A stretch of DNA of 64,000 bases from assembly GCF_044324785.1 (NCBI RefSeq), contig NZ_CP172127.1, one strand, 5' to 3'. This DNA comes from Escherichia coli (lineage in GTDB: Bacteria; Pseudomonadota; Gammaproteobacteria; Enterobacterales; Enterobacteriaceae). The position numbers and the translations under genes were made by a program. A model generated the notes under the pieces. It ran no database searches. It was not told the origin of the DNA and was given only the letters and a program-made list of their open reading frames with translations. Below, one piece after another: positions 17,145 to 37,427 of this stretch (positions within the stretch are counted from its first letter, which is position 1; each line of letters starts with the position of its first letter).

Positions 17145-17153
17145 TGCTTTAGT

Positions 17154-17177
17154 AAGGGCGCGACGTCTGCGCCCTTT
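17154..17177 (+). terminator. rho-independent terminator downstream of bglX
   Basis: GGGCGC...GCGCCC stem followed by TTT. Confidence 0.5.
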
Positions 17178-17292
17178 AAGTATTTATCTGATTCTGCAAC
17201 TGAATCCGCCCAGACAGGCTAACCCTGTCATTATCAACTATGCTTTTCTCTTAATTCGCTGAAAACAACAGTAAAAGAATGAGGAAAGCATC

Positions 17293-18210: not shown

Positions 18211-18216
18211 TTTCCC

Positions 18217-19374
18217 GTGACTTATTTCCGTATTAATCCTGTTCTGGCGCTGCTGCTGTTGCTGACGGCAATCGCAGCGGCGCTGCCGTTTATCAGTTAC
18301 GCGCCTAATCGTTTAGTTTCGGGTGAGGGGCGTCATCTCTGGCAGCTGTGGCCGCAAACGATCTGGATGCTGGTGGGCGTTGGTTGCGCCTGGATGACAG
18401 CCTGTTTTATTCCCGCTAAAAAAGGCAGCATTTTTGCACTCATTCTGGCGCAATTCGTCTTCGTATTGCTGGTGTGGGGAGCAGGAAAGGCGGCGACACA
18501 ACTGGCACAAAATGGCAGTGCGCTGGCGCGTACCAGCCTCGGCAGTGGTTTCTGGCTGGCTGCGGCGCTGGCATTGCTGGCCTGTAGCGATGCCATCCGC
18601 CGAATCTCCACGCATCCGCTGTGGCGCTGGTTGTTGCATATGCAGATTGCCATCATTCCGCTGTGGTTGCTGTACTCCGGCACGCTTAACGATCTCTCGC
18701 TAATGAAAGAATACGCCAACCGTCAGGATGTGTTTGACGACGCGCTGGCACAACATCTGACGTTGCTGTTTGGTGCGGTGCTGCCTGCGTTAGTGATTGG
18801 TGTGCCGTTGGGCATCTGGTGCTACTTTTCCACCGCGCGGCAGGGGGCGATTTTTTCTCTGCTCAATGTCATTCAGACCGTGCCTTCGGTGGCGCTCTTT
18901 GGCCTGTTGATTGCGCCGCTTGCCTCGCTGGTTACGGCCTTTCCGTGGCTGGGTAAGCTCGGCATAGCAGGAACCGGAATGACACCCGCACTGATTGCGC
19001 TGGTGCTCTATGCCTTGCTGCCGCTGGTGCGCGGCGTGGTAGTCGGCTTGAACCAGATCCCGCGCGATGTGCTGGAGAGCGCCAGAGCGATGGGCATGAG
19101 CGGGGCGCAGCGATTCCTGCATGTTCAGTTACCGCTGGCGTTACCGGTATTTCTGCGTAGCCTGCGGGTAGTGATGGTGCAAACCGTCGGCATGGCGGTG
19201 ATTGCGGCGTTAATCGGTGCAGGCGGTTTTGGGGCGCTGGTTTTCCAGGGGCTGCTAAGCAGCGCCATTGATTTAGTATTGCTGGGGGTGATCCCGGTAA
19301 TTGTTCTGGCGGTGCTGATCGATGCGCTGTTCGATTTGCTTATCGCACTGCTGAAGGTGAAACGTAATGATTGA
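18217..19374 (+). CDS. yehY: osmoprotectant ABC transporter permease
   Basis: 385-aa polytopic membrane ORF; gene order. Confidence 0.85.
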
Positions 19375-20293
19375 ATTTAGCCATGTCAGCAAACTGTTCG
19401 GCGCACAAAAAGCCGTTAACGATCTCAATCTCAATTTTCAGGAAGGGAGTTTTTCGGTGCTGATTGGTACATCAGGCTCCGGTAAATCCACCACTCTGAA
19501 AATGATTAACCGCCTGGTGGAGCATGACAGTGGCGTGATCCGCTTTGCCGGAGAAGAAATTCGCTCGCTGCCAGTGCTGGAGTTGCGCCGCCGGATGGGC
19601 TATGCCATTCAATCTATTGGCCTGTTTCCCCACTGGAGCGTGGCGCAAAATATTGCCACCGTGCCGCAATTACAAAAATGGTCACGGGCGCGGATCGACG
19701 ATCGTATCGACGAATTAATGGCGCTACTGGGGTTGGAGCCAAATTTGCGTGAGCGTTATCCGCATCAGCTTTCCGGTGGTCAGCAGCAACGTGTGGGAGT
19801 GGCGCGCGCACTGGCTGCCGATCCGCAAGTCTTACTGATGGATGAACCTTTTGGCGCACTGGACCCGGTAACGCGCGGCGCGTTGCAACAAGAGATGACG
19901 CGCATTCACCGTTTGCTGGGGCGCACTATTGTGCTGGTCACTCATGATATTGATGAGGCGCTACGGCTGGCAGAACATCTGGTATTGATGGATCACGGTG
20001 AAGTGGTGCAGCAGGGCAATCCGCTGACGATGCTGACTCGTCCGGCGAATGATTTTGTCCGCCAGTTTTTTGGGCATAGTGAACTGGGTGTCCGCCTGCT
20101 TTCGTTACGTAGTGTGGCGGATTACGTGCGTCGCGAAGAACGGGCAGAAGGTGAGGCACTGGCAGAAGAGATGACGCTACGCGATGCGCTCTCCCTGTTT
20201 GTCGCGCGGGGATGCGAGGTGCTGCCGGTGGTGAACACGCAGGGCCAGCCTTGCGGCACGCTGCATTTTCAGGATCTACTGGTGGAGGCGTAA
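19367..20293 (+). CDS. yehX: osmoprotectant ABC transporter ATP-binding protein
   Basis: Walker [13 protein letters not shown] signature LSGGQQQR, Walker B LLMDEP; overlaps yehY stop by 8 nt. Confidence 0.9.
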
Positions 20294-20297
20294 GCGT

Positions 20298-21029
20298 ATG
20301 AAGATGTTGCGCGATCCGCTGTTCTGGCTCATTGCTTTGTTTGTGGCACTGATTTTCTGGCTGCCTTACAGCCAGCCGCTGTTTGCTGCCTTGTTCCCAC
20401 AACTGCCACGACCCGTTTATCAGCAGGAAAGCTTTGCAGCTCTGGCACTGGCTCATTTCTGGCTGGTGGGAATTTCGAGTTTGTTTGCGGTGATCATTGG
20501 CACTGGTGCAGGAATTATTGTTACTCGCCCGTGGGGCGCGGAATTTCGCCCACTGGTGGAAACTATTGCCGCCGTTGGGCAGACTTTTCCGCCCGTCGCG
20601 GTGCTGGCGATTGCCGTTCCGGTGATTGGGTTTGGTCTGCAACCCGCGATTATCGCCTTGATCCTTTACGGTGTGCTGCCCGTCCTACAGGCGACACTTG
20701 CCGGGCTGGGAGCGATTGATGCCAGCGTGACAGAAGTTGCGAAAGGTATGGGAATGAGTCGAGGTCAGCGACTGCGTAAGGTCGAGCTACCGCTGGCGGC
20801 TCCGGTGATTCTGGCGGGCGTGCGAACTTCGGTGATTATCAACATTGGTACGGCGACGATCGCCTCAACGGTAGGGGCCAGCACGCTGGGTATGCCCATC
20901 ATCATCGGGCTTAGCGGATTTAATACCGCGTATGTGATCCAGGGGGCGTTACTGGTGGCACTGGCGGCGATCATTGCAGACCGCCTGTTTGAAAGGCTGG
21001 TGCAGGCGCTTAGCCAGCACGCAAAATAA
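20298..21029 (+). CDS. yehW: osmoprotectant ABC transporter permease
   Basis: 243-aa membrane ORF directly after yehX. Confidence 0.85.
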
Positions 21030-21117
21030 AGGTATAACCTGCGAGCATGACGCCACCAATTCCGCCTAACGCCATAAACAGGAACAGGGCGATGACCCCA
21101 ATTTTAGCTATGCGCAT
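21010..21117 (-). CDS. yohO: small membrane protein YohO (35 aa)
   Basis: Manual translation of minus strand: [35 protein letters not shown]; 3' end overlaps yehW 3' end by 20 nt. Confidence 0.8.
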
Positions 21118-21176
21118 AATGCACTCCTTATGTTAACGAAAGGATTGTACAGTAAAGCGCATTTGTTAACGAATCA

Positions 21177-21908
21177 TTAAATGCCGAGTGGGAAAATATC
21201 ATGGCCTTGTTCCTGCCAACTGGTAAGTTGCTGCTGTTGGGCAGAGGTTCGATTTTCACCGCACCACACCAGCAATGTACGGCCTTCGAACAGTTCAGGG
21301 CGTAGTTGATTGAGCGAGTGGGCGAGGACATCAATGCGCCATCCTTGTTGACTGGCAATCCAGCCCTCCAGCCACAGACGGGTGGTATCCTGAATATTCC
21401 AGCCAACTACCAGCGCATCTTTACCCTGTTTTTTACGCGCCGAAGCCAGACAAATGGCGATGTAGTTGATCAGTACGCCGTCGAGGATCGCCAGCAGCGC
21501 CTGGAGAGTCGGTTGTTGGCACTGAAGTCGTCGGCGCAGAGGAATAAACAGATGTGTGGTGAGCGTCTGGGCGGGGTAATCCTGACCGCGCTCTTTGATC
21601 CACGTTCGCAGGCTATGCAGATTGCCGCTTTGCAGGTAAGTCAGTAATGTTTCTTGCTGATCGCGCCAGCCGTTCTGCACATCAACATTTTCATTACTGA
21701 GCAGCATTTTAACTTTGCTAACCTGCACGCCGTTGTCGATCCAGCGTTTGATCTCGCGGATCCGGTCAATATCGGCATCATTGAACAGCCGATGACCGCC
21801 GTCTGTCCGTTGCGGTTTCAGCAATCCGTAACGCCTCTGCCACGCGCGTAACGTGACAGGGTTAATATCACAAAGCAACGCCACTTCACCAATTGTGTAA
21901 AGCGCCAT
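21177..21908 (-). CDS. mlrA: MerR-family transcriptional regulator MlrA (curli/csgD activator)
   Basis: 243-aa ORF with N-terminal MerR HTH (YTIGEVALLCDINPVTLRAWQRRYGLL). Confidence 0.9.
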   Translation of the reverse strand: MALYTIGEVALLCDINPVTLRAWQRRYGLLKPQRTDGGHRLFNDADIDRIREIKRWIDNGVQVSKVKMLLSNENVDVQNGWRDQQETLLTYLQSGNLHSLRTWIKERGQDYPAQTLTTHLFIPLRRRLQCQQPTLQALLAILDGVLINYIAICLASARKKQGKDALVVGWNIQDTTRLWLEGWIASQQGWRIDVLAHSLNQLRPELFEGRTLLVWCGENRTSAQQQQLTSWQEQGHDIFPLGI

Positions 21909-22129
21909 CGTCTCACCCTTGCTCGCGAGGTCCCGGTTTAACTTTAGACGCAGTTTTGCGAACCAGGTAGTTTTGCCCGTTTTTTGTGCATCTATAGGGT
22001 GATTTTATTTTTGCCAGGCGATTTTGAGTGATCGTACTCACGAATTCTCATTTTTCTGCAAGAGTTCAAAGAAAGTTAAACGCAGGCAATGTATGTTACG
22101 CGTTTTAAAGGGAAGTGTGGTTTGCGGGT

Positions 22130-23815
22130 ATGTACGATTTTAATCTGGTGTTGCTGCTGCTTCAGCAGATGTGCGTTTTTTTAGTCATTGCGTGGTTAAT
22201 GAGTAAAACGCCATTATTCATACCGTTAATGCAGGTCACGGTTCGTCTGCCGCATAAATTTCTCTGCTACATCGTCTTTTCCATCTTCTGCATCATGGGC
22301 ACCTGGTTTGGGTTGCACATTGACGATTCTATTGCCAATACCCGTGCGATAGGCGCGGTAATGGGCGGCTTGCTCGGCGGTCCGGTCGTCGGTGGGCTGG
22401 TTGGTCTGACCGGCGGGTTACATCGATATTCGATGGGGGGCATGACCGCGCTAAGTTGCATGATCTCGACCATCGTTGAAGGATTGCTCGGCGGCCTGGT
22501 ACACAGCATCCTGATTCGTCGCGGGCGCACTGATAAAGTCTTTAACCCCATTACCGCCGGTGCCGTCACGTTCGTCGCTGAAATGGTGCAAATGTTGATC
22601 ATCCTGGCGATCGCCCGACCTTATGAAGATGCGGTGCGTCTGGTGAGTAATATTGCTGCGCCAATGATGGTCACCAATACCGTCGGCGCGGCGCTGTTTA
22701 TGCGTATATTGCTCGATAAACGCGCGATGTTTGAAAAATACACTTCGGCTTTTTCTGCTACTGCGCTGAAAGTGGCTGCCTCGACGGAAGGCATTTTGCG
22801 CCAGGGGTTTAACGAAGTGAACAGCATGAAAGTGGCACAGGTGCTGTATCAGGAGCTGGATATTGGTGCAGTCGCGATTACCGATCGAGAGAAATTGCTG
22901 GCCTTTACCGGAATTGGTGACGACCACCATTTACCCGGCAAACCGATTTCTTCGACTTATACCTTAAAAGCAATTGAAACCGGTGAAGTGGTCTACGCTG
23001 ATGGCAACGAAGTACCTTATCGTTGCTCTTTGCATCCGCAATGCAAACTGGGGTCGACGCTGGTAATTCCGTTGCGTGGCGAAAATCAGCGGGTGATGGG
23101 CACCATCAAATTGTATGAAGCCAAAAACCGTTTATTCAGTTCAATCAACCGCACGTTGGGTGAGGGGATTGCGCAACTGCTTTCGGCGCAGATCCTCGCC
23201 GGGCAATATGAGCGGCAAAAAGCGATGCTCACCCAGTCAGAGATCAAACTGCTTCACGCTCAGGTGAACCCCCATTTTTTGTTTAATGCGCTTAACACCA
23301 TTAAAGCGGTGATCCGTCGCGACAGCGAACAGGCCAGCCAGCTGGTGCAGTATCTTTCCACTTTTTTCCGCAAAAACTTAAAGCGGCCTTCGGAGTTTGT
23401 TACTCTCGCCGACGAAATTGAACATGTGAACGCTTATCTGCAAATTGAAAAGGCGCGCTTCCAGTCGCGGTTGCAGGTCAACATTGCTATTCCGCAAGAA
23501 TTATCCCAGCAGCAATTGCCCGCGTTTACCCTGCAACCGATAGTGGAAAACGCTATTAAACATGGGACATCACAACTGCTCGATACAGGGCGAGTGGCAA
23601 TCAGCGCCCGACGTGAGGGGCAACATTTGATGCTGGAGATCGAAGACAATGCCGGTTTGTATCAACCGGTAACCAATGCCAGTGGGCTGGGGATGAATCT
23701 GGTGGATAAGCGTTTACGTGAACGGTTTGGCGATGACTATGGGATAAGCGTCGCCTGTGAGCCTGATAGTTACACCCGAATAACGTTACGACTACCATGG
23801 AGGGACGAGGCATGA
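22130..23815 (+). CDS. btsS: pyruvate-sensing sensor histidine kinase (LytS family)
   Basis: 561 aa from ATG at 22130; 5TM-LytS N-terminus, GAF, His-kinase HATPase C-terminus. Confidence 0.9.
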
Positions 23816-25550: not shown

Positions 25551-25674
25551 GTAAAACTCCATTTTATTTAATCAAGGAACTGGTGACTCTCACCAGGGGC
25601 TATATAGGATATGCCTAATACTGTGGCGTGAGCAGTCCGGAACTGGAGTAGAACTCTTAGTAAAAAGCACTATT

Positions 25675-27675
25675 TCATCCTTGTTGCTGAAGCATGGGGA
25701 ATAATTGTTCGCAAAGTAAAACACCGTTATTCATTGCTTCTACCCGTGCCTCGCTTTCTGTATTACGAAATTGTGCCAACACATGTGCCAGCCGATAAAA
25801 ACCCACCGCGGAGAGGTCATTCGCCAGCAACTCTGCCTGACCAATAGCACTCTGTTCCTGATAGCGCCAGCCGTTATGGAGCAGTTGAATAAGTAACGCC
25901 TGGCAGCGCATCAGCAACTGATGAGCGGTAGACGGCACAGGCAAAACGCTGGCAGAAGGTAGCGGTGCCACAGGCGCAGTTTCTGCGTCCAGCGCCCAGG
26001 CGCGAGTTTTTGTCATCATCACCCGTGGTTCCAGTGTCAATTGCCCCTCTACAAAGCTGACAAAGCCAGAAACCAGACTCACGGGGTCGTCTGTTTGTTG
26101 CAAAAGCGCCGCCATGCGTTCAACGGCAAAAGGAGAACAGGCAGATGCCGGAAGGGATAACGTCAGCACATTATCTTCCCCTTCGCCGCTAATGACCTGC
26201 GCATCCAGTGTCTGGCGGCTGCTATCCCAACCAAGCGAAATACACTCCGCTACCGGCAGAATAAATAAGTTATCGACCTGGTTGAGTGGTCGTATGCAGG
26301 CGGGGGGACGCTGGCGTAAATATTCCCGCAAAGCCACAATGCCCGGCTGGCGCAACGGCGCACTCAACATTTGCCAGGCGTCTGGCGACAGTGGAACAAC
26401 ACTACTCAAGCGGTTGCGGGTAGCTAACAGCAGCTCGCCATCGGCACTGCGTTTTGCTGCTTGTGAAACAATTTGCCCACCCGCCAGTGCGCCAGCCTGA
26501 AAACTAAACAGCCGACGCGTCGCTGCCGGTGAGTTTTCCTGTTCGCTTCTCGGCCAACTACGCGAAAGGTGCAAAATACTGCCGGTGTCGGGATCGGTAA
26601 ACCAGATGCGTAAACCATACTGCTCAATATCCTGCCAGCAACGCATACCTAAAGACACCAGCCGCAGATGATCAAGCTTTGCTTCTCCGGCAATGCCAGC
26701 GCCAACGACCGTGCGCCACGGCATGGGAGGAACTTCACCAACACTGTCGCGCCGGGCCATCTCTTGTGCACAATTTAATCGATTGTTTAATGCCGCAAGC
26801 TGACATAAGCATTCTCCGGCATGATAGTGGCTGGCGCGGGCGTGGAAGGCATCAACGCTGGCGCGCAGTTGCCGTAGCGATTCACTCACCCAGCGCCAGT
26901 TGCAGCGTTCCGCCGCTTGCTGCGCGCGGCTGAAAGCAGCCTCGTAATGAATAAGCGGCTGGCTGATGCCGCCAAGCCATAACGCCTGGCTTAATTGCTG
27001 AACATATTGACGACACGCGTCGCCCTCATCGTTGGCAAACGGATCGTCAGATGATGTGACGTGTTCGCTGCGCATCTGCCAGATTAAATGAGTAAATTCC
27101 GCTTGCTGCGCTTTGGCCTGGGCAAAGGCCTGTACTGCCAGTACGACATGTTCGCAAAGTGTGCCGTCAATACAATCACAGCGTGCGAAACGAATGCTGC
27201 TGCGGGAATAAAAACGTACATCGCTCATCGGTAAGCGGGCAGAGGGAATTTCGCCAGGCGTACAGAACAACTCAATGGTGATGCCTTTAGCGACCAGTGT
27301 CTGTGCGCGTTTGCGGGTGGCATCGGGCAGGGTAGCCAGTTCTTCCAGCCAGATTGCCGGATCCCACTCTTCTTCTTTTTCCGTAGGCTGGGTGGTGGCG
27401 CAAAGTCGCTGATAACTTAAAACCAGCATCACGCGATGGCGGCACATGCCGCTGGCCCCGCAGCTGCATTGAGCCTCTTTCAGTGCCTGACCGTTCGCCA
27501 GCTGGGTGCGGACACCGTCACTGAAGGTGGCGATTAAAGCGCCGTTCTCATGGCTGATTTCCGGGACGTTGCCATTTTCCAGTTCTTTAAGGCTGCGCTT
27601 AACAAAACCGGCATTGCTTAACGCCGTCAAAGCTTGTGGTGTCAGTTCTAATAATTCCGGCCGTAGTGAATTCAT
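25675..27675 (-). CDS. yehQ: SWIM zinc-finger protein YehQ
   Basis: 666-aa ORF with two CxC..CxH SWIM-like motifs (CSCGASGMCRH, CDCIDGTLCEH); ATGA overlap with yehP stop. Confidence 0.8.
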   Translation of the reverse strand: MNSLRPELLELTPQALTALSNAGFVKRSLKELENGNVPEISHENGALIATFSDGVRTQLANGQALKEAQCSCGASGMCRHRVMLVLSYQRLCATTQPTEKEEEWDPAIWLEELATLPDATRKRAQTLVAKGITIELFCTPGEIPSARLPMSDVRFYSRSSIRFARCDCIDGTLCEHVVLAVQAFAQAKAQQAEFTHLIWQMRSEHVTSSDDPFANDEGDACRQYVQQLSQALWLGGISQPLIHYEAAFSRAQQAAERCNWRWVSESLRQLRASVDAFHARASHYHAGECLCQLAALNNRLNCAQEMARRDSVGEVPPMPWRTVVGAGIAGEAKLDHLRLVSLGMRCWQDIEQYGLRIWFTDPDTGSILHLSRSWPRSEQENSPAATRRLFSFQAGALAGGQIVSQAAKRSADGELLLATRNRLSSVVPLSPDAWQMLSAPLRQPGIVALREYLRQRPPACIRPLNQVDNLFILPVAECISLGWDSSRQTLDAQVISGEGEDNVLTLSLPASACSPFAVERMAALLQQTDDPVSLVSGFVSFVEGQLTLEPRVMMTKTRAWALDAETAPVAPLPSASVLPVPSTAHQLLMRCQALLIQLLHNGWRYQEQSAIGQAELLANDLSAVGFYRLAHVLAQFRNTESEARVEAMNNGVLLCEQLFPMLQQQG

Positions 27676-28808
27676 GACTGAAGATTCTCCGCAAGCCAGG
27701 TCGCCAGTTCGCCCGGCGTCATGGCGGCTATTTGTGCGCCGACATTAACCAGCGCCTGGGCCGTATCGTGGTCATAGCAAGGTGTTGCGGTGCTATCGAG
27801 CGCCGCCAGTCCCAGCACTTTGACGCCGCTCTGGACACACGTTTTCACCTGATGCGTCAGCAATGATGATGAACCCCCTTCATAGAAATCGCTCACGAGG
27901 ATAATGACGCTTTTCGCTGGTTGTTCAATAAGTTGCCGACCATACTCCACGGCACTGGCGATATTGGTCCCGCCGCCCAGTTGTACTTTCATTAATAACT
28001 CTACTGGATCAGCAACGTCTGCCGTGAGATCAACGACGCTGGTGTCAAACGCCACCAGATGGGTACGAATGCCGGGTAACTGCCATAAACAGGCCGCCAT
28101 CACCGCAGAGTGGATCACCGAATCGACCATCGATCCGCTTTGATCAACCAGTAAGACCAGTTGCCATTGTTCGCTTTGGCGTTTAATGCGGCTGTTAAAG
28201 CGGGGGGATTCGATATACAACTTGCCGTGTTGCGGGTGCCAGTGTTGCAGGTTGGCGCGCAGAGTACTTTTGAAATCAAAGTTTCGCGCCAGTGGAATAA
28301 ATGAGCGGCGACGGCGATCGCGGACACCAGAAAAAGCCTGGCGAACTTCCTTTGCCAGTCGCGCCATAATTTCTTCAACAACCTGGCGCACTATCCGGCG
28401 GGCGGCAGCCAGCACTTCGGGATTCATCAGATGTTTGGTGTGCAAAACGGCGCGTAGCAGGCTTTCAGAAGGCTGCATACGTTCCAGCACGTCGAGATTC
28501 GTCACCACATCTTCAATGCCGTAGCGCAGTACGGCATCGCTTTCCAGCCGCTCGATCACCTGTTGCGGAAACAGCGTGTGAATACTGTTGATCCACTCAG
28601 GGGTGGTGAGATTTGAGTCACCTAATCCACCGGAGCGTTCACCACGCTGGAGCCGTTCAGGATCGCGCCCATACAGCCACTCCAGCGCGTGGTCTATCTG
28701 CCGGGCATTGTCATCCAGCCCACAAAGGGTCGTTTCTGCCGCTTCGCCAAGAATTAATCGCCAGCGTTGTAGCTCACGGGTGGTCAGAAGATCGTTCAGT
28801 TCAGACAT
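27672..28808 (-). CDS. yehP: von Willebrand factor A-domain protein YehP
   Basis: 378 aa from internal ATG (MSELNDLLTTRELQ); MIDAS motif DQSGSM; overlaps yehM stop (ATGTCTGA). Confidence 0.85.
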   Translation of the reverse strand: MSELNDLLTTRELQRWRLILGEAAETTLCGLDDNARQIDHALEWLYGRDPERLQRGERSGGLGDSNLTTPEWINSIHTLFPQQVIERLESDAVLRYGIEDVVTNLDVLERMQPSESLLRAVLHTKHLMNPEVLAAARRIVRQVVEEIMARLAKEVRQAFSGVRDRRRRSFIPLARNFDFKSTLRANLQHWHPQHGKLYIESPRFNSRIKRQSEQWQLVLLVDQSGSMVDSVIHSAVMAACLWQLPGIRTHLVAFDTSVVDLTADVADPVELLMKVQLGGGTNIASAVEYGRQLIEQPAKSVIILVSDFYEGGSSSLLTHQVKTCVQSGVKVLGLAALDSTATPCYDHDTAQALVNVGAQIAAMTPGELATWLAENLQS

Positions 28809-31080
28809 GGAAAACTCCCCAGTGTTGCAGCGATGCCAGTGCCTGCTGTTCGAGTTGTTGATGATGTGCAATGGCTTGCGGTGGACAATGCAACGGCATT
28901 TGCAGCGCTGAAACGGGAAGCTGTGCGAGCTGGTAATGCTCAAGCACCTGATGCGCCAGCGTCCCGCGTTCCCGTGGTGGTAGCCAGGCCATCGCCGCAC
29001 GTAAATCGGGCAGGGCGTTAATAAAATCGTCGTCACTCAGTTGATTTAAATGACTACTGAAACCGGCGATAAATGCCGGCTGACAGGCCAGTTGATGGCG
29101 GGCCAGCGCCAGCAAACCGTGCAGTGCCTCGCCGGATTGTGCCGGGGATAATTGCGCCAGCATCGTCAGCGCCGCTTCGGCACTGGCGTTGGGATGTTCC
29201 AGACGCATCAGTGCGCCAAGAGCCGCGCCGCGATCCAGCGCCGGGGCATGAATCGCCTGACTGCGGCGCTCCAGTAAGGCTACCGCCGCAGAAAGAGAAA
29301 CGCCGGGTAAATTAACGCCGCTATGTAGATCGCGCAGGATATGGCAAAGCGCCTGCCAGCTATGCAGGTGAGCGTGAAACTCCTTTTCCTCCGGTCTGCC
29401 GTTGGATTCACACAGCCAGAGTGTGCGATCGATAGCCGCGCATAACGTCGTCTGTAATATCTGCGCGCCTTGCATACCGCTAATTTCATCCAGCCGCCAT
29501 AAGGCGTATAGCACTTCCAGCGCCTGGCCCATTTCGGCAAACTGATTTTCCTGGGCGATTAATAATGTAAGTTGCTCCAGTAATTGTTGACTGAAGGACG
29601 CCAGACCCGCTAACGCCGCCTGGCTAAGACATGTGGTGATACTGCCGATTCCACCCGCGTCCAGCATATCGGCTTCTAATTTATTGCGTGCGGCTTCCTG
29701 GAGTGTGGCACCAAAGCAGGCGGCCTCAATTAATGCCGCATGTTGGCTAAGCGGGCGGGTTAATTTCCAGCGTTCTTCACCGTTGCCTGCAAGTGTCAGT
29801 GTGCTTCCCTGCTGGCGTACAATCCCTGGGATCTCCAGTATTGCCAGCCGATGTAACACCTGACTTTGCGCTAGTCTATTGGGGTTAAAGCGATTTAAGG
29901 TAAGCTCCGCCGGAAGAGAGATTGCGGTACGTTCCAGTTCGCAGGTGACATCTTTTGGCAGAGGCGGTTGTGGCGTAGAAGGGGCAAGTTTACCGAATCC
30001 GTCACCCGCTAATGTGTCTATCAACGTTAGCAGAATCGGATCGGTATCGGGATGAATAACGCCGCGATAGCTCCACGGCAACGGCGCGTTCAAGGCTTCT
30101 TTAATCAGCGAGCCTGCTATGGCATCCAGCCAGTCAGTGCGTAACGGTAGTATATGACCGCGCAACTGTGCCAGCGCCATCGCATGCAGATGAGCGGCAG
30201 CCATATCCGCTGTTGAAGCAGGCAAGTGGTGCTGGCGCAAACGGGTAAGAACCGTTTTCAGCAGTTGTTCACCTGCCTGCTGCAAGCCCCACCGCCAGCA
30301 CCAGTTTTGCCAGACCGGGGCAGGCATTCCTGAAAGGTATCCTGCCAGCACATCAAGGCGCTTTTCACTGTATGGCGTGAGATAGCAACCTGTAACGGCA
30401 TCATCCAGTGAGAGCAATTCTGGCGTGTTAATTTCTTGCGGGCATTCGCGCCACATTTTTGCCAGTGCCGGAGCGTGCCAGCCTCCGCAGACGACTAATA
30501 CGTCGCCATTATTTTGCTGCATCGCCCATCCAATCCAGCGGGCCATAAAGGCTTCGCGCTGACGATTGAGTGCATCGCCGGAGGCGTCGCCCCGCAGTTG
30601 TACAAAATAGTGCGCCAGTGCAGAGGGTAATATAGTTTGCTGGCTTTCATCTTCGAACAAGTGATCCCACAGGGTGTCGCTGTTATCCATGCGGGTGGCA
30701 CGCAGCAGCAAGGTCTGGCTTTCCTCTTGCGTATCAGGCGAATTGTCCTCTTCTTCACTCTGTGCCCAGCAAGGCAAATCGATGAAGTAAGTTTGTGCCT
30801 GAATACGACGTGCGGCTTGTAGCGCCTGCCACTCCGGCGAAAATTCAGCAAATGGCGTCCAGGCACCACGCCCGGGGGCCGCACCGTCCTGATACTGGCA
30901 ATAACTGTAAATAGCTACCGGAAGCTGGTGGGCTAACAACAGTTCGTCTACCCGGTCATTAAAATCAGCCGGGCCTTCAATCAACACGTATCGTGGCCGC
31001 TGGCTTTCGATTAACGATTTCACCAGCCGGGCGCAGGCCGGACTATGATGCCGGATGCCGACAATTAACGGCTCGCTCAT
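28801..31080 (-). CDS. yehM: uncharacterised large protein YehM
   Basis: 759 aa from internal ATG (MSEPLIVGIRHHSPACARL); ORF track extends 47 codons upstream into yehL. Confidence 0.85.
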   Translation of the reverse strand: MSEPLIVGIRHHSPACARLVKSLIESQRPRYVLIEGPADFNDRVDELLLAHQLPVAIYSYCQYQDGAAPGRGAWTPFAEFSPEWQALQAARRIQAQTYFIDLPCWAQSEEEDNSPDTQEESQTLLLRATRMDNSDTLWDHLFEDESQQTILPSALAHYFVQLRGDASGDALNRQREAFMARWIGWAMQQNNGDVLVVCGGWHAPALAKMWRECPQEINTPELLSLDDAVTGCYLTPYSEKRLDVLAGYLSGMPAPVWQNWCWRWGLQQAGEQLLKTVLTRLRQHHLPASTADMAAAHLHAMALAQLRGHILPLRTDWLDAIAGSLIKEALNAPLPWSYRGVIHPDTDPILLTLIDTLAGDGFGKLAPSTPQPPLPKDVTCELERTAISLPAELTLNRFNPNRLAQSQVLHRLAILEIPGIVRQQGSTLTLAGNGEERWKLTRPLSQHAALIEAACFGATLQEAARNKLEADMLDAGGIGSITTCLSQAALAGLASFSQQLLEQLTLLIAQENQFAEMGQALEVLYALWRLDEISGMQGAQILQTTLCAAIDRTLWLCESNGRPEEKEFHAHLHSWQALCHILRDLHSGVNLPGVSLSAAVALLERRSQAIHAPALDRGAALGALMRLEHPNASAEAALTMLAQLSPAQSGEALHGLLALARHQLACQPAFIAGFSSHLNQLSDDDFINALPDLRAAMAWLPPRERGTLAHQVLEHYQLAQLPVSALQMPLHCPPQAIAHHQQLEQQALASLQHWGVFHV

Positions 31081-31090
31081 GCATCTTTCC

Positions 31091-32179
31091 TCACGGCAGG
31101 CGGTGGCGAGCTTGATAATAAGCCTGCCAGTGAGCTTCTTTATGTGTAGCGACACGTTGTTCGAAGTAACGGCGCAGACGTGCGCGATCTTCTTCGTTAT
31201 CTTTGACGATGGTTCCGGCAATACAGTCCACCAGGTCGGCTGGCTCCCCCGCGCGATTCGCTAAAAACCAGGCGCGGACGCCCACAGCGTGGGCCACGTT
31301 CACGGCTTCAGCGGTGGACATAATCGCTGTCAGTGTATCCATTGACGTTTTCTTTTCGCCGTTGGCACGCAGATCGCGGAAGGTGCGTACCAGTAACTCC
31401 AGTACCGCGTCAGGCACTTTATGCGGAATACCGCTATGGGCCAACAAACGCGCCGAAGCACTGGCGACCAGTTCCAGCTCCTGGGCGAAATCCATAATCG
31501 GAAAGACAGTTTCAAAATCGAAGCGACGCTTTAGCGCAGCACTCATTTCATTGACGCCGCGATCGCGGGTATTGGCAGTGGCAATAATATTAAAGCCTTC
31601 CCGCGCATAGAGCTGACTGGCTTCACCAGTGAGTTCCGGCACCGTCATTACCCTGTCAGAAAGCATACCTAACAGACAGTCTTGTACTTCCAGCGGTGTA
31701 CGCGTTATCTCTTCAAAACGGACAATTTTGCCGTCGCGCATTCCCTGGTAAAGCGGGGCAGGGACCAGCGCTTCCGTTGACGGACCATGGTTGATAAGCA
31801 GGGCGTAGTTCCAGCCATACTTGATTTGATCTTCGGTGGTAGATGCGCCGCCCTGGATGGTTAACCCGGCATCGCCGCTAATAGCGGTTGCCAGTAATTC
31901 AGACAGGAGAGATTTTGCGGTGCCAGGTTCCCCCACCAACATCAAACCGCGCCCGGTAGCGAGAGTGACTAACATGCGTTCGACAGCGGAGGGACTGATC
32001 ACGACTTTACGGCTAATATTTTGCGCTTCGTCGCCAAGGATAAAAGCACGGGCCGCAGGCAAACTTAACTGCCAACCTGGCGGGCAAGGTGCGTTATCAT
32101 TTTGTTTTAATTTTGCCAGTTCATCGGCGTATAACACAGCGGCAGGCGGACGCTGCAGATGTTTATTCTGCGGTGACAT
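31091..32179 (-). CDS. yehL: MoxR-type AAA+ ATPase YehL
   Basis: 362 aa from internal ATG (MSPQNKHLQRP); Walker A GEPGTAKS. Confidence 0.85.
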   Translation of the reverse strand: MSPQNKHLQRPPAAVLYADELAKLKQNDNAPCPPGWQLSLPAARAFILGDEAQNISRKVVISPSAVERMLVTLATGRGLMLVGEPGTAKSLLSELLATAISGDAGLTIQGGASTTEDQIKYGWNYALLINHGPSTEALVPAPLYQGMRDGKIVRFEEITRTPLEVQDCLLGMLSDRVMTVPELTGEASQLYAREGFNIIATANTRDRGVNEMSAALKRRFDFETVFPIMDFAQELELVASASARLLAHSGIPHKVPDAVLELLVRTFRDLRANGEKKTSMDTLTAIMSTAEAVNVAHAVGVRAWFLANRAGEPADLVDCIAGTIVKDNEEDRARLRRYFEQRVATHKEAHWQAYYQARHRLP

Positions 32180-32290
32180 ATATTCATCCCTGAAATGTAT
32201 TAATGAAATAAACGATATTTTACGCGCAATAAATGTTTGGCGCATTAGTTGTTTGAGCGAAAAATATCTGGAAAGCAGATCACAGTAAAT

Positions 32291-32371
32291 AAAAAAACCT
32301 GCTGGTGAGGCAGGTTCTTTTATTTACTACAGTGACGCTAACTTGCTGATTGTGCAACATTTCGTACCAAC
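32291..32371 (-). ncRNA. orzO: OrzO-like antitoxin sRNA (copy 1), ~81 nt
   Basis: Minus-strand promoter (-10 TATAAT at 32383-32378, -35 TTGCAA at 32406-32401, 17-nt spacer); terminator hairpin AACCTGC-TGGTGAG-GCAGGTT 32296-32316 followed by U-tract on minus strand; 5' 18 nt complementary to toxin 5' UTR 32520-32537. Confidence 0.6.
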
Positions 32372-32377
32372 GAATAA

Positions 32378-32428
32378 ATTATAACCATATCCACACTCCA
32401 TTGCAATTCAGTGAATGAGATTTATAAT
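32378..32428. promoter_or_regulatory. divergent sigma70 promoters of zor copy 1 and its sRNA sharing one palindromic -35 hexamer TTGCAA
   Basis: Plus strand: TTGCAA (32401-32406)-16 nt-TATAAT (32423-32428); minus strand: same TTGCAA-17 nt-TATAAT (32383-32378). Confidence 0.55.
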
Positions 32429-32609
32429 CCTGCCCGTTGGGAGGTTGTGCCGGATCGGACCAATTTTAAGTCCTGGCTACCGGACGGGTGGTGCCGCAGG
32501 CGGTGCCCTGATCCGGAGAGCAACGTTTCGTACCAACATACGTAAACCAGTATCGACAGGCAGTGTAAGGGTAAGGTGCTGGTGTTGCGCTCCTTAATAA
32601 GGAGAGCGG

Positions 32610-32699
32610 ATGGACACGCTGACACAAAAGTTAACCGTGCTCATTGCTATACTGGAGCTATTAGTGGCTCTGTTACGGTTGATTGATTTGTTGAAGTAA
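32610..32699 (+). CDS. zorO: type I toxin, 29-aa hydrophobic peptide ZorO/ZorP family (copy 1)
   Basis: Manual translation: MDTLTQKLTVLIAILELLVALLRLIDLLK; AAGGAG SD 5 nt upstream; ~175-nt 5' UTR from predicted TSS ~32436; O versus P assignment between the two copies is uncertain. Confidence 0.8.
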   Translation: MDTLTQKLTVLIAILELLVALLRLIDLLK

Positions 32700-32720
32700 C
32701 GGGCAAATTGAAACGCATCT

Positions 32721-32745
32721 AAGGGGGAAAACCGCTTCCCCCTTT
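32721..32745 (+). terminator. rho-independent terminator of zor copy 1
   Basis: AAGGGGGAAAACCGCTTCCCCCTTT hairpin 22 nt after stop. Confidence 0.6.
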
Positions 32746-32897
32746 AATAAAATGATTACTGTTTTTATTAATTCATCATATAACTCATTTTTATTTATAA
32801 ATTCATCGATTTTATATTCAACGTACCATTTGACCGGGATGTGAATATTTATGGTGGGCTATTGGCAAAAAATATCTGGAAAGTAGATCGCAGAAAA

Positions 32898-32979
32898 TAA
32901 AAAAACCTGCTGGTGAGGCAGGTTCTTTTATTTACTACTTTGATGTTAAGTTACTGATAGTGCAACATGGCATCTCAAC
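32898..32979 (-). ncRNA. orzP: Orz-like antitoxin sRNA (copy 2), ~82 nt
   Basis: Minus-strand -10 at 32991-32986, -35 TTGCAA 33014-33009; terminator hairpin 32904-32924 with U-tract; 5' region complementary to copy-2 toxin UTR 33126-33146. Confidence 0.6.
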
Positions 32980-32985
32980 GAACGA

Positions 32986-33036
32986 ATTATAACCACCTCT
33001 GGACAGTGTTGCAATTAAGATAATGAGATTTATAAT
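32986..33036. promoter_or_regulatory. divergent promoters of zor copy 2 and its sRNA sharing palindromic TTGCAA
   Basis: TTGCAA 33009-33014; plus-strand TATAAT 33031-33036; minus-strand TATAAT 32991-32986. Confidence 0.55.
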
Positions 33037-33217
33037 CCTGACTGTTGGGAAGTTGCGCCGGATCGAACCCATTTCAAGTCCTGGCTACCGGACGGGTGGT
33101 GCCGCAGGTAGTGCTCTGATCCGGAGTGCAACATGGCGACTCAACAAACGTAAACCAGTGTCGACAGGCAGTGTAAGGGTAAGGTGCTGGTGTTGCGCTC
33201 CTTAATAAGGAGAGCGG

Positions 33218-33307
33218 ATGGACACGCTGACACAAAAGTTAACCGTGCTCATTGCTGTACTGGAGCTATTAGTGGCTCTGTTACGGTTGATTGATTTGTT
33301 GAAGTAA
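33218..33307 (+). CDS. zorP: type I toxin, 29-aa hydrophobic peptide ZorO/ZorP family (copy 2)
   Basis: Manual translation: MDTLTQKLTVLIAVLELLVALLRLIDLLK (one I-to-V difference from copy 1); same SD and UTR architecture. Confidence 0.8.
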   Translation: MDTLTQKLTVLIAVLELLVALLRLIDLLK

Positions 33308-33326
33308 CGGGCAAATTGAAACGCAT

Positions 33327-33734
33327 CTAAGGGGGAATACCGTTTCCCCCTTTAATAAAGCTATACTCGTCATACTTCAAGTTGCATGTGCTGCGACTTG
33401 AATTATCTAGAGTATATAATTCTATTTGTTGGTTGAATATATTCTGTAGTTCACAATTAAAAATTACTATTACAGGTTCAGGTGATTCGCCTCGTAATTT
33501 TTGCTCATCAATAAACTCATCTCTTATATAAATCAACGCATCATTTATTAGCGGGTCGACATCTTCTCGATCACGTTGATGAAATGTTGGACGTAGCCGG
33601 AATCGCTCCAGCCGGTAGACGGAGCCTGTAAATAATTCAGAGCGTTTATGGATCTCAAGCCTGAAGGAAAACGGCTCTTCAGGTACAGGGGCCTCATAGT
33701 CGTAAATAGTGACCAGCTCTTTTTGCACGATCAT
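33327..33734 (-). CDS. yehK: hypothetical protein (YehK-like), 135 aa
   Basis: ORF in the position of yehK downstream of yehI; identity by position only; 3' end overlaps zor copy-2 terminator. Confidence 0.45.
   Translation of the reverse strand: MIVQKELVTIYDYEAPVPEEPFSFRLEIHKRSELFTGSVYRLERFRLRPTFHQRDREDVDPLINDALIYIRDEFIDEQKLRGESPEPVIVIFNCELQNIFNQQIELYTLDNSSRSTCNLKYDEYSFIKGGNGIPP
33329..33353 (+). terminator. rho-independent terminator of zor copy 2
   Basis: AAGGGGGAATACCGTTTCCCCCTTT hairpin. Confidence 0.6.
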
Positions 33735-33794
33735 CGCTTTTCCCGGTGGCAGGTCGTGTTAATAACGGGCAGTCGCATCACTGCCCGCTGTGTT

Positions 33795-36700
33795 TTAATG
33801 GAAAATAACGTCGGGTGCGCTTAACGCTTCACTCAAATCAAACACATCAAGTTCGGCAAAAGTGACAGATTTATTCTCGCGGTATACATGAAGAGAACGG
33901 AAGCTCATTAGCGCTTTGCTATCAACATTGTAGTGGTTAAAACCGGATGAAAACTTAAGGACCAGCCGGTACTCGCCCAGGTCATAGACAAATGCGTTCT
34001 CATAGCCTGACTCCCAGCCTTTGTATCGCATTCCCATAAGTTGCCCAACGGTAGCAGATTTACCTTCCCAGCGATTCAAACTATTACTGGCTGACTCGTC
34101 AGGCGTGAGCAGCACTGTGCGCCGTGCCAATTGGCGAAAAGGCGGCATAATTTCGTAATCGGCAAAAAGCTGTGCAAACTCACTGCGCATTTCTGCTGCC
34201 ATTTCTAACGGGTGGGCAATGCCAATCAGAGCATCGGCAGGCAGGTCAATGGGCTCATCTTGCTCATTGCAGAACTCCCCCTCAGCGGCCACACGAAAGG
34301 CGTTGAGTAAACGACGCGGTTCATTTGCCGGATAAACACCCCATATTAATCGCTGAGTAACCAGACGGGTAAAGGGATGATTAACAAACAGAGAATGAAA
34401 ATCTGCCAGCGACCAGCGTCGGGTGGTGCGCAGGGCAGTTTCAAGACGCGGGAGCAGGTTTTTGCTCACCTGAGTGGCATCTTTTTTTAGCCCTTTTAGT
34501 CGGGCCAGTGCCTCGGGTGCTTTCAGTTGATCGTCATCGGCGCGCAACCGGGGAACGCTTTTCTGGCGAACGTTTTGCTGATCAAAGATAACCGGGTTAA
34601 GGTTTTCATCGAAGCGAACGGTAAATTGCCGTGGACCAAAATCAAAAATCAACGCCTGCGGATCATCAAGACCCAGTGTTGGGACTAATCTGTCCGCTAA
34701 CTGTTCCTGGCTTAGCCCGCGATTTTCTGCGACCACCTGAAGAAATTCCGCCGCGTTATCACGTAAGGGGCGGGATTTCGCCCGTTGCGATATATGATGC
34801 AGCTGTATCAGTGCCATATCATTATTCATCTGAGTAAGGATGTTCAGGCCGCTGACGGCACGGGCAGATTTGCCTTCCTGTGGCCAGGCAAGGATCTGTG
34901 TCGTCAGATCCCGTGCCGTGCTTTCGTCGCCAAAGAGACTTAACGCCAGAAATGCCCAGTTGTCTTTTGCGGGAGCACCAGCTTGTTGCCACGCGGTGAA
35001 AAGATCCCAGGCAAAAGCTGCCAGCGTTTGCGGCTGGCAGAAAGTTTTCAGTTGTTCCAGTCCGCTATAAAAACGTCCGCCCTGGGTAAAGCACAGCATT
35101 TCGCCGATAATTTCCAGAGCGTCATCGGTAACAGGCTGATTATTAGTGATAAGGCGCGGCCTGGACCACATTGCCGGCTGCCAGAAATCAGGGGCTTTTG
35201 GAATGCGTGTCGGGTAAATCTCTATTGGACTCTGTTTAAGTAATTGCTCCAGGGCAGGCCATACATCTTTACGCTGCCAGCGGTTTGCCACGGTTTGCAG
35301 TAACTCGCCATGTCCCTGTTCGTAAAGTAAACGCAGGGCAAGTAATGCAGCTTCGCTATTATCGCTGGATTTGGTGAAGACAAGAGGGATAAGTGCAGTA
35401 GCCGTATGTTCCGGCCAATGTAAAATCCACTGGCGAGCCAGATCACGCTGCGCCGCGAAACGTCGCCAGACGCGGGCAACGGGCAGTGCCAGTTCGGTTG
35501 CGCCGAAATTTAAAATTAACGGAAATGTTTCTTTTGGACGATGTGAAAAAGCCAACAGCAGACCTGGTAGAGCATCCAATCCGAAGATACTGAGAAAATA
35601 GTCCTCACCCGCAGACAGATGCTTTTTCTCATTGATACGTAGCCAGAAAGTCAAAGCCATCTCACGCGGCAACTGCGCCAATAAATACTGGTTCCAGATA
35701 CTCTTTTCCCGACGATAGCGTGAGTAGCTGTCATTTTCCCATATGTTAATTAACACTTCTACGTGACCGCTGCGAAGCGCCTGTTCTGCTAATTGAGCTT
35801 CCGGGGAGCTCCAGCCATTCATGATCTCTTCAACCCGCCCTGGGTAGTAATGCCACTGAACAATGAGTGAATTGCGTGCAGCATCCAGTTTTCCGGGGAG
35901 TATATAATTCAAAAACAGCCATACATCATCTCCAAAACCCAGCTCCTGTAGTACAACTCGTCCACTTTTATGTTCCATGCGTTCCGCAAGAGATTCCGTG
36001 CTGAAATAACGGGCAGACTCAGTGGCGGCAAGCCTCTCTCGTTCGCCCGGTTGCCAGTAAACTTGCGGCGTTAATTCGAACGGTGCCAAATCAAGACGTG
36101 GAACTGTCATTTTTTTCTTACTACGCCACGGTGGTGAAACGAGGATTTCAGGCATTTGGCTGTTATCGGTGCTATCAATAACCGTTTTGGGCGGTGCCGA
36201 TAAATAACTATTCAGCACTGCCTGGGCTTGAGTACTTAACCACGGCATCACCTCTTCTGCCAGTTGTGGCTGCGATGCCATCAGCGTTTGTAACAGCGTA
36301 CGCCAGAATTCATCACGTGCTTTTTGCTGTGCAGGCAGCTTTTTGTCTTCGATGATTGGATAACCTGGGCGGGCTGGTGGTTCTTTTAACGCCAGCAGTT
36401 CTGCCAGTGCGGTGAGTGTCGCATGGGGGAAGTTTTTACTGTATTTAGCCACACGTTGCAGGCTGGGTTTGTTTTTATCAGCAACTAACAGCAAGGTGCG
36501 GATGACTTGCGGATGGTTAATTTGTACCAGCAGACTGCCGCAATCTTCTTTATGAGCATACATTGCCAGGCGCGGAACGGCTGCCAGTCCTTGTTCGCGC
36601 AAAAGGGAGGCGCAGGCCGCGTAGCCGAAGCGGTTTTCTTGTGACATGTAGCTGGCTTCGCGATCGCTAAATACGTCCAGGCCCCAGTATCGTTCGAGTT

Positions 36701-37427
36701 TTTTTACCGCTCTGGGGTCATTAGCAACAACTTTTAACCACTCCTTAGAATGAAAATGAGTCCGCGGGCATTCAAGGCCTACCAACTCATTGGCGATTTC
36801 TGGTTTTTCCGGGAGGAGCAGCGCAATAAAAGGGCGGCGAACTTTGGTTATTCCTGGCAGTGCGGCAATGAGTTTGTCGGCGCAACGCTGCCAGCTGCTT
36901 TCCTCTGCCAGAGAGAGATGCTTACGCAGTCGGAGATCGAATTCGTTATAGGTTTCTGAGCGATAACCATAGCCATAATCCTCGTTCTGATACTGCAATG
37001 TCACTAGCAGAGGATCACTCTCATAACACCGTGCAATAAACTGGCGTGCAATCACCACCTCAGTCGCATATTCCAGTCCCTCTTGTTGGACGATTTCGTC
37101 GAGCAACTGTTGGCTATCATTTTGCGCGATACAGGTTAGCGCCGCCATTGTCCGGGCCGGAACTGAGGGTTTGTGTTCTCCGATCAAGTTGATGGCCTGC
37201 GTAATGGCCGACTGCCACTCCAGTGAAAAATTTTCATAACGCCAGACAATGTTTTTTTTCTTCTCAGCTTTTTGTAGCAATTCATCACCCAGTGTCTGGA
37301 TGAGGCTTTCAGTGATAACAGGCACCGGTTCGCCCGGCCAACTGCGATGGCTGAGCGGCGTTTTGCCTTTTTTATATTTCAGTTCCACTTGGGCGTTATC
37401 CGCCAGCCACGGTAATTCCTTGTCCAT
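33795..37427 (-). CDS. yehI: DUF4132-family large protein YehI
   Basis: 1210-aa ORF; paralogous to downstream molR over most of its length. Confidence 0.9.
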   Translation of the reverse strand: MDKELPWLADNAQVELKYKKGKTPLSHRSWPGEPVPVITESLIQTLGDELLQKAEKKKNIVWRYENFSLEWQSAITQAINLIGEHKPSVPARTMAALTCIAQNDSQQLLDEIVQQEGLEYATEVVIARQFIARCYESDPLLVTLQYQNEDYGYGYRSETYNEFDLRLRKHLSLAEESSWQRCADKLIAALPGITKVRRPFIALLLPEKPEIANELVGLECPRTHFHSKEWLKVVANDPRAVKKLERYWGLDVFSDREASYMSQENRFGYAACASLLREQGLAAVPRLAMYAHKEDCGSLLVQINHPQVIRTLLLVADKNKPSLQRVAKYSKNFPHATLTALAELLALKEPPARPGYPIIEDKKLPAQQKARDEFWRTLLQTLMASQPQLAEEVMPWLSTQAQAVLNSYLSAPPKTVIDSTDNSQMPEILVSPPWRSKKKMTVPRLDLAPFELTPQVYWQPGERERLAATESARYFSTESLAERMEHKSGRVVLQELGFGDDVWLFLNYILPGKLDAARNSLIVQWHYYPGRVEEIMNGWSSPEAQLAEQALRSGHVEVLINIWENDSYSRYRREKSIWNQYLLAQLPREMALTFWLRINEKKHLSAGEDYFLSIFGLDALPGLLLAFSHRPKETFPLILNFGATELALPVARVWRRFAAQRDLARQWILHWPEHTATALIPLVFTKSSDNSEAALLALRLLYEQGHGELLQTVANRWQRKDVWPALEQLLKQSPIEIYPTRIPKAPDFWQPAMWSRPRLITNNQPVTDDALEIIGEMLCFTQGGRFYSGLEQLKTFCQPQTLAAFAWDLFTAWQQAGAPAKDNWAFLALSLFGDESTARDLTTQILAWPQEGKSARAVSGLNILTQMNNDMALIQLHHISQRAKSRPLRDNAAEFLQVVAENRGLSQEQLADRLVPTLGLDDPQALIFDFGPRQFTVRFDENLNPVIFDQQNVRQKSVPRLRADDDQLKAPEALARLKGLKKDATQVSKNLLPRLETALRTTRRWSLADFHSLFVNHPFTRLVTQRLIWGVYPANEPRRLLNAFRVAAEGEFCNEQDEPIDLPADALIGIAHPLEMAAEMRSEFAQLFADYEIMPPFRQLARRTVLLTPDESASNSLNRWEGKSATVGQLMGMRYKGWESGYENAFVYDLGEYRLVLKFSSGFNHYNVDSKALMSFRSLHVYRENKSVTFAELDVFDLSEALSAPDVIFH

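Follow-up and report, generated by a model that had tools for sequence, protein, structure and literature searches.

The yehLMPQ genes of Escherichia coli and their linked DUF4132 partners as a putative five-family MoxR-VWA system

The yehLMPQ operon and its proteins

The present study examined yehLMPQ, a run of four genes of Escherichia coli, together with the neighboring genes yehI and molR, in a 64,000-nucleotide stretch of contig NZ_CP172127.1 (RefSeq assembly GCF_044324785.1; the whole stretch is hereafter the window). The four genes, which carry the names yehL, yehM, yehP, and yehQ in the RefSeq annotation of E. coli, were taken from a list of open reading frames (ORFs) and their translations:

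31091-32179, minus strand: yehL, ORF of 362 amino acids
28801-31080, minus strand: yehM, ORF of 759 amino acids
27672-28808, minus strand: yehP, ORF of 378 amino acids
25675-27675, minus strand: yehQ, ORF of 666 amino acids

Positions and strand agree with a first-pass annotation made from the sequence alone, and the junctions that it listed were all found: the TGA of yehL is followed by 10 nucleotides (ggaaagatgc) and then the ATG of yehM, yehM and yehP overlap by 8 nucleotides (ATGTCTGA), and yehP and yehQ overlap by ATGA. The translational coupling proposed in the same annotation is plausible from these tight or overlapping junctions and appears to be conserved, with an in-frame NTGA overlap of 4 nucleotides possible in other species at 58 of 78 yehM-yehP junctions and 61 of 77 yehP-yehQ junctions. 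Only weak terminator-like sites were returned within yehLMPQ by a terminator scan. The stretch covering the four genes was matched in 5362 of 5426 complete E. coli genomes (98.8%), with coverage of at least 80% in 5202 and an identity of 95-99% in most of the matched genomes. Between yehQ and yehR, 3' of the yehQ stop, a hairpin (CTGGTGA-GAG-TCACCAG) followed by TTCCTTGATT lies at 25583-25600 on the minus strand; it is absent from the output of the consensus scan and could be the terminator of the operon.

The MoxR, VWA, and SWIM domains called at first pass were backed by Pfam, which returned AAA_5 for YehL (E-value 2.6e-34), VWA_CoxE with an intact MIDAS motif for YehP (1.8e-71), and two SWIM motifs for YehQ (9.7e-4 for the first); with DUF5682 in YehM (3.4e-97), these E-values put the domain calls far beyond chance. 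An NCBIfam scan gave AAA and VWA matches below threshold only. Judged by its sequence, YehL is a single-module MoxR-type AAA+ ATPase of the AAA_5 kind. Among YehL and its orthologues from 80 other species, the scope over which the motifs of YehP were also measured, the Walker A motif GEPGTAKS is identical in 81 of 81 sequences except for E84D in two, and the Walker-B-like motif VRFEEI, in which the acidic pair is E-E, is identical in all 81 except for one substitution at each of two positions, with individual columns of both motifs conserved in 79-81 of 81. In a PDB sequence search the nearest solved sequences to YehL were the AAA modules of midasin/Rea1 (6.7e-10), and Pfam returned a weak, partial bpMoxR match (0.0024 over 51 residues). 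YehL is the name-giving member of one of seven MoxR subfamilies, after Snider and Houry as cited in PMC3893208, and is one of two MoxR ATPases in E. coli K-12, of which the other, RavA, has been studied extensively (PMC3893208).

The VWA gene yehP lies two genes downstream of yehL, and a VWA gene is present in 78 of the 80 other-species loci. The VWA_CoxE match of YehP covers model positions 1-222 of 222, and 78-79 of 79 sequences retain its MIDAS residues (D222xS224xS226, T281, D307); YehP presumably serves YehL as its adaptor. In four distant clusters YehM and YehP are naturally fused into a single protein, which speaks for direct contact between the two.

YehM is the signature protein of the system, with 2260 relatives among 50%-identity cluster representatives and at least 553 tblastn-confirmed matches in a one-genome-per-species collection. 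The first pass had recognized no motif in YehM, a description that was not borne out by the structure model, in which residues ~1-240 form an alpha/beta domain like those of TIKI, TraB, ChaN, and erythromycin esterase (Ere), with a small alpha/beta domain after it in the middle of the protein and a HEAT/ARM-type solenoid at the C terminus. The parallel beta-sheet core fold of the TIKI/TraB/ChaN/Ere superfamily is present in the modeled N-terminal domain. Fold matches of the YehM model were as follows:

ChaN: 9.9
TraB-family protein: 9.8
HopBA1: 9.0
Ere-like proteins: 8.5 and 7.9
EreC: 7.2
PMT: 7.1
RRSP: 6.7

ChaN, HopBA1, PMT, RRSP, and the Ere family are all members of the TIKI superfamily, the enzymatically active members of which use a catalytic 2His/2Glu motif (PMC6254334). 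In the YehM family alignment, invariant residues (R10 H11 H12, E35, H51, E83, D101, E143, R175 E176, H202) cluster in the N-terminal domain. H11/H12, E35, and H202 come after beta-strands in the order GxxH...E...GxxH, as in the TraB-family protein YbaP, and in a comparison with the superfamily motif by position relative to the strands, the invariant H11, H12, E35, E83, E143, E176, and H202 were all found to follow strands. No TraB, ChaN-type, or erythromycin-esterase family was matched by YehM in Pfam at E-values up to 10, and alignment to a YbaP/TraB profile with hhalign was not significant (E 0.23, probability 0.3%), a weak negative given that this profile is shallow and enterobacterial (at least 65% identity). 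YehM stands apart from the TIKI/TraB/PrgY/GumN/ChaN/erythromycin-esterase superfamily (including RRSP, PMT-C1, and HopBA1) in having no sequence-level match to it and in the long HEAT-type solenoid to which its domain is fused. Not all members of the superfamily are enzymes, ChaN and PMT being examples that are not. The modeled assignment to the superfamily would accordingly hold at the level of the fold only, and we hypothesize that YehM may be catalytic, with the invariant His and Glu as candidate catalytic residues.

In YehQ, the first CxCx5CxH motif (C70/C72/C78/H80) is invariant in 30 of 30 sequences, and the second (C166/C168/C174/H176), present here with a Pfam SWIM E-value of 0.11, is kept in 19 of 30. 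The YehQ model consists of the SWIM, a degenerate second SWIM, a helical bundle, OB-like beta-barrels, and a C-terminal helical bundle; from the strand pattern, there are probably two OB-like barrels, at about residues 331-430 and 470-561. Fold matches of the YehQ model were as follows:

OB folds: Teb1, 8.6; Stn1, 8.5; RPA32, 8.5
OB folds: p204 HIN domain, 8.1; RecG, 7.9
SWIM protein ZSWIM8: 8.1 (17% identity over 175 residues)

DUF4132 partners and the five-family cassette

Two large genes, paralogues of one another, lie upstream of yehL in the window:

33795-37427, minus strand: yehI, MolR paralogue with DUF4132 (Pfam 1.2e-46 at residues 954-1138) and no WGR domain
37437-41186, minus strand: molR, yehF/yehH of K-12 and intact here, with WGR (Pfam 1.4e-17, residues 5-67) and DUF4132 (2.6e-50, residues 973-1158)

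The first pass correctly placed zor/orz toxin-antitoxin units and yehI/molR beside yehLMPQ; the boundary that it drew around the four genes was not supported, since yehI/molR belong to the conserved cassette. Gene context was taken from the precomputed Pfam labels of four contigs, metagenomic or genomic, and from the 80 other-species loci, which were scored by our own ORF calling, phmmer, and profile searches. The conserved order is at least one [WGR-]DUF4132 gene, then AAA_5, DUF5682, VWA_CoxE, and a gene of the YehQ family, with every gene on the same strand. The loci come from Enterobacterales, Xanthomonadales, Burkholderiales, Myxococcota, and Actinomycetota (80 species, four phyla). Family matches were obtained in 80 of the 80 loci for YehL, 78 for YehP, 77 for YehQ, and 74 for DUF4132. 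Four of the six loci with no DUF4132 match have less than 1 kb of upstream flank and were excluded, leaving 76 informative loci, and in 74 of these a DUF4132 gene stands beside the cassette, nearly always on the same strand and abutting yehL. The DUF4132 stop adjoins or overlaps the start of yehL: 23 of 68 loci allow an in-frame NTGA overlap, and 29 more have another start within -30 to +60 nucleotides. All-against-all clustering of 2530 flanking ORFs from the 80 species gave no sixth conserved gene family. As judged by this shared linkage, the unit is one of five families, with yehI/molR as the fifth component.

The reading that yehLMPQ is a stand-alone four-gene operon, its adjacency to yehI/molR being coincidental, is disfavored by these comparative data, and we consider it very improbable. 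It can draw on the spacing in this genome, where about 1.6 kb and two small-RNA terminators separate the two gene groups, on two loci with full flanks and no DUF4132 (L037, L076), and on the exceptions in position, DUF4132 lying downstream of yehQ in two Burkholderia loci and divergently in Labilithrix. Set against these are the 74 of 76 informative loci, across four phyla, that keep DUF4132 beside the cassette, and K-12, which has no zor/orz insertion at all.

The engine of the cassette is more conserved than its periphery: between E. coli and Actinomycetota, identity is 64% for YehL and 58% for YehP versus about 38% for YehM and about 27% for YehQ. YehL has ~75% identity to both Erwinia/Serratia and Betaproteobacteria, with no gradient within Proteobacteria. 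YehI is 32% identical over 1251 aligned positions to a Variovorax WGR-DUF4132 protein that abuts its yehL homologue. Of 74 loci, 52 have one or more DUF4132 paralogues in which a WGR domain was detected, and tandem DUF4132 paralogues, often in two or three copies, recur in Massilia, Klebsiella, Lentzea, Glycomyces, and others. On contig L004, where the first cassette has YehM and YehP fused (1180 amino acids), a second AAA_5-DUF5682-VWA_CoxE set follows downstream at 15598-23468, preceded by a 501-residue protein with no Pfam match and a HEAT_2 protein rather than DUF4132.

Pfam scans of MolR and YehI covered the first 1200 residues of each. The ATG at 41186 was taken as the start of molR because the conserved WGR domain begins there; the RefSeq annotation of strain N3 has a molR coding sequence 45 nucleotides longer, the start of which, from its annotated length, would fall upstream of the LexA-box-like site described below. 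The MolR N terminus matches the solved protein 2ra8 (2e-23), and the MolR family profile reaches chain 2eoc, named PARP3, at 0.0028; PDB sequence searches with single proteins and three family profiles gave relatives only for YehL (midasin) and MolR (WGR chains). MolR is like the WGR proteins of the PARP family in its N-terminal WGR, and differs from them in lacking a PARP catalytic domain and in the fusion of WGR to a helical protein of ~1100 residues ending in DUF4132; by analogy, we assume that the MolR WGR may bind DNA breaks. A relatedness of DUF4132 proteins to cullin repeats (residues 142-357) was rejected as helical-repeat noise, its E-values of 0.06-0.4 being non-significant. The C-terminal third of the DUF4132 proteins (MolR residues ~820-1249) is by far the most conserved part of the family, with E1017, R1024, R1025, H1038, H1092, D1110, and R1122 (MolR numbering) invariant in the family alignment, a pattern that would fit a functional site better than a plain helical repeat.

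Insertions, the K-12 state, and regulation

The features that separate the two gene groups in the window, and a site upstream of molR, are as follows:

33327-33734, minus strand: yehK, small AT-rich lineage-specific ORF between yehI and the zor/orz units
32291-32972, minus strand: two zor/orz type I toxin-antitoxin units between yehK and yehL
32291-32364 and 32899-32972, minus strand: OrzO-P small RNAs (Rfam RF02083, 88.8 and 91.7 bits)
41196-41213, minus strand: LexA-box-like site AACTGGATAAAATTACAG, a pattern match 10 nucleotides upstream of the molR ATG

The zor/orz units are a lineage-specific later insertion that splits the cassette and are not part of the system. They form a tandem repeat spanning 32250-33330 with a repeat unit of about 608 bp, and each unit carries promoter-like TTGCAA/TATAAT pairs on either strand. 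The insertion is missing from K-12, where the gap is 306 bp. The interval 32180-33794 is covered to at least 80% in 3365 of 5426 E. coli genomes, with a median of 5 matching places per genome. Strong terminator hairpins of the units lie at 32296-32316 and 32904-32924, the proximal Orz hairpin ending about 110 nucleotides upstream of the yehL ATG, and from their positions they should uncouple transcription of yehLMPQ from that of molR-yehI. The small ORF yehK is probably not part of the conserved system: its GC content is 40% versus 54-56% for yehLMPQ, no homologue was found in the cassettes of the 80 other species, and no similarity was detectable to a small ORF at the same position in Variovorax. 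It encodes 135 amino acids here versus 105 in K-12, and the extra length may have come with the insertion, since the 3' end of the ORF enters the zor repeat unit. The Variovorax ORF (L016, L017/L002, L023; e.g., L002 8362-8796) is of 144 amino acids, has no Pfam match, and lies between the WGR-DUF4132 and AAA_5 genes.

In K-12 MG1655 (2196474-2210944), molR is split into yehF and the pseudogene yehH, with only three segments aligning to the intact gene, and yehQ stops at residue 614 of 666, 52 residues early, with the DNA collinear at 94.7% identity and 2 gaps. The ~95% identity of the yehQ in the window to that of K-12 is lower than expected of an E. coli core gene. With a broken molR and a truncated yehQ, the system is probably defective in K-12, and null phenotypes obtained in K-12 may be uninformative.

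The LexA-box-like site falls within the top 3% of background windows from the same locus and lies directly after the metG terminator (41294-41317); the strict pattern CTGT-N8-ACAG had no match in the window. The site precedes molR only, with no LexA box upstream of yehL. A published list of SOS genes for which an SOS box is known includes molR (PMC6590174), and yehL and yehM were up-regulated in hns/stpA mutants (PMC3686432). LexA-motif matches that recurred in other taxa were set aside, as they lie inside coding sequence, either that of the WGR domain or that of preceding genes.

A proposed remodeling machine and its rivals

We tentatively propose a composite model, possible in our view though short of probable, in which the five proteins would form one machine, an ATP-driven remodeling engine with nucleic-acid-binding modules; the model is drawn from domain content and gene linkage. 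YehL would form a MoxR-type AAA+ ring with the MIDAS/VWA protein YehP as its adaptor, and YehM, physically joined to YehP, would contribute a scaffold of HEAT repeats together with a TIKI/TraB/Ere-like domain that acts as a hydrolase or binds a ligand. YehQ, through its SWIM and OB-like barrels, and the WGR of MolR would be the nucleic-acid binders, with DNA ends or single-stranded DNA as the most plausible targets, and the large DUF4132 proteins would be exchangeable sensors or clients, remodeled by the ATPase and maybe processed by YehM. In E. coli the sensor gene molR would be under LexA, such that the system would be armed in the SOS response, and yehLMPQ would be repressed by H-NS; the ancestral cassette would have been split here by yehK and the two zor/orz units.

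Several points weigh against this model. Complex formation, nucleic-acid binding, and hydrolase activity are each steps that we infer; WGR went undetected in 22 of 74 loci, some of which are truncated; and the LexA box is not conserved outside E. coli, two scans with proteobacterial, actinobacterial, and xanthomonad motifs having given no enrichment and no such box ahead of the cassette in other Proteobacteria or in Actinomycetota. SOS control of the yehLMPQ engine is doubtful because terminators separate it from molR here.

A further reading of the same cassette, which we regard as rather doubtful, is that it is a cross-phylum, five-component machine for sensing nucleic acid, in which WGR, OB-like, and SWIM modules would detect DNA ends or foreign DNA and trigger a midasin-like AAA+/MIDAS remodeler that activates a TIKI-type hydrolase. 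If so, it would be a new type of MoxR-VWA system, found in at least several hundred species of four phyla. It would belong to the DNA-damage response as a new effector branch, or else would be a new class of bacterial immunity missed by current defense catalogs. In its logic the proposed machine resembles midasin/Rea1, the AAA_5 modules of which are the nearest solved sequences to YehL: an AAA_5 ring and a client-gripping MIDAS domain would work with HEAT/ARM-repeat partners. Six AAA modules are fused in midasin, which works on pre-60S particles. It differs from the yeh proteins in being a single chain of 4700-4900 residues, whereas the yeh parts are separate proteins with no ribosome link.

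A more classical alternative, also raised in the first pass, is that YehL/YehP form a MoxR-VWA maturation chaperone that inserts a metal or cofactor into, or reactivates, an enzyme encoded elsewhere, like CoxD/E, NorQ/D, and CbbQ/O, with YehM, YehQ, and DUF4132 as accessory scaffolds or cofactor carriers and the ChaN-like domain binding haem or metal. The cassette is like the known pairs (RavA-ViaA, CoxD-CoxE, NorQ-NorD, CbbQ-CbbO) in encoding a single-module MoxR/AAA_5 AAA+ protein near a MIDAS VWA protein, and the full-length VWA_CoxE match (1.8e-71) accords with this alternative. So do weak GvpN and cobaltochelatase NCBIfam matches far under their cut-offs, an AAA match to a PHROG labeled 'porphyrin biosynthesis' (2.4e-10), the historical name of MolR ('molybdate metabolism regulator'), and, in the modeled structure, the top YehM fold match, ChaN being a haem-binding protein. 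The layout of large subunit, AAA_5, and VWA moreover recalls the CobN/S/T and BchH/I/D chelatases. The yeh cassette differs from class I chelatases (CobNST/BchHID), however, in having no large subunit of the CobN/BchH family: the Pfam matches of MolR and YehI are WGR and DUF4132 only, with no chelatase family, and YehP scored 18 bits against the cobaltochelatase NCBIfam model with its cut-off of 779. It is also unlike the characterized MoxR-VWA pairs in that it has no linked client enzyme, in that its three additional, obligatory partner families (DUF5682, the SWIM/OB-like YehQ, WGR-DUF4132) are absent from those pairs, and in the Walker B of YehL, which reads FEE instead of DE. To our knowledge, WGR, SWIM, and OB-like modules are not features of known maturation systems, which counts against this alternative, and multiple tandem DUF4132 paralogues are hard to square with a single client. 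No gene for an enzyme or metalloprotein is co-conserved beside the cassette in the 80 species, so the metal-insertion idea is left with no specific support, and we judge a maturation chaperone to be unlikely.

Another alternative, to which we likewise give a low probability, is an anti-phage or anti-plasmid conflict system of the NTP-dependent MoxR-vWA type, in which diversifying DUF4132 paralogues would sense nucleic acid or proteins of an invader and a YehL/YehP switch would release YehM as a proteolytic or hydrolytic effector, leading to abortive infection or target cleavage. Ternary MoxR-vWA-beta-propeller conflict systems (Pfam bpMoxR) are reportedly the subject of Kaur et al. 2020. The yeh cassette resembles these in combining a MoxR-vWA pair with large, fast-evolving partners, possibly including an effector, in a multi-gene cassette, and in the weak bpMoxR match of YehL (0.0024), and differs from them in that its partners are of different families; no beta-propeller was found, either by Pfam in the components or in the structure models of YehM and YehQ. 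The distribution, patchy among phyla, with a highly identical engine and without a gradient inside Proteobacteria, is consistent with a conflict system, as are the expansion of paralogues and the fast-evolving peripheral components, the hydrolase-like domain modeled in YehM, silencing by H-NS together with an SOS-inducible molR, an intergenic space that is a hotspot for type I toxin-antitoxin units, and the varied, unrelated genomic contexts of the cassette. Weighing the other way, YehL, M, P, Q, K, I, and MolR matched none of 5027 PADLOC models (PADLOC-DB v2, E up to 0.01), no defense or mobile-element neighbors recur, and the presence of the cassette is core-like, not island-like: in 98.8% of complete E. 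coli genomes it stands at a single fixed site of the chromosome. PHROG matches, near-identical in score, are most likely chromosomal sequence caught in prophage calls. They are not taken as evidence of a phage origin: the near-full-length, very high-scoring matches of all seven proteins (e.g., 1536 bits for YehQ) are to high-numbered families of unknown function, judged to be probably E. coli chromosome within prophage predictions, a caveat on PHROGs as evidence of phage origin.

The operon and the YehL subfamily are known already as uncharacterized entities, and the first-pass statement that yehLMPQ has no reported function agrees with the searchable literature, in which nothing functional was found on yehL-Q: matches for yehL/M/P/Q were strain-deletion lists, an H-NS study, and author-name noise. 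The same literature held no paper with 'DUF5682', no relevant paper joining MoxR with WGR or SWIM, and none describing the system. What appears to be new is the definition of five components, together with the folds assigned to YehM and YehQ and the probable defect of the system in K-12. With the missing partner family named (MolR/YehI), an uncharacterized part of the E. coli genome that holds one of the two K-12 MoxR ATPases passes from a four-gene unknown to a defined, testable system. In Deinococcus, the radiation/desiccation regulon includes a DUF4132 protein and a WGR protein (PMC8533742).

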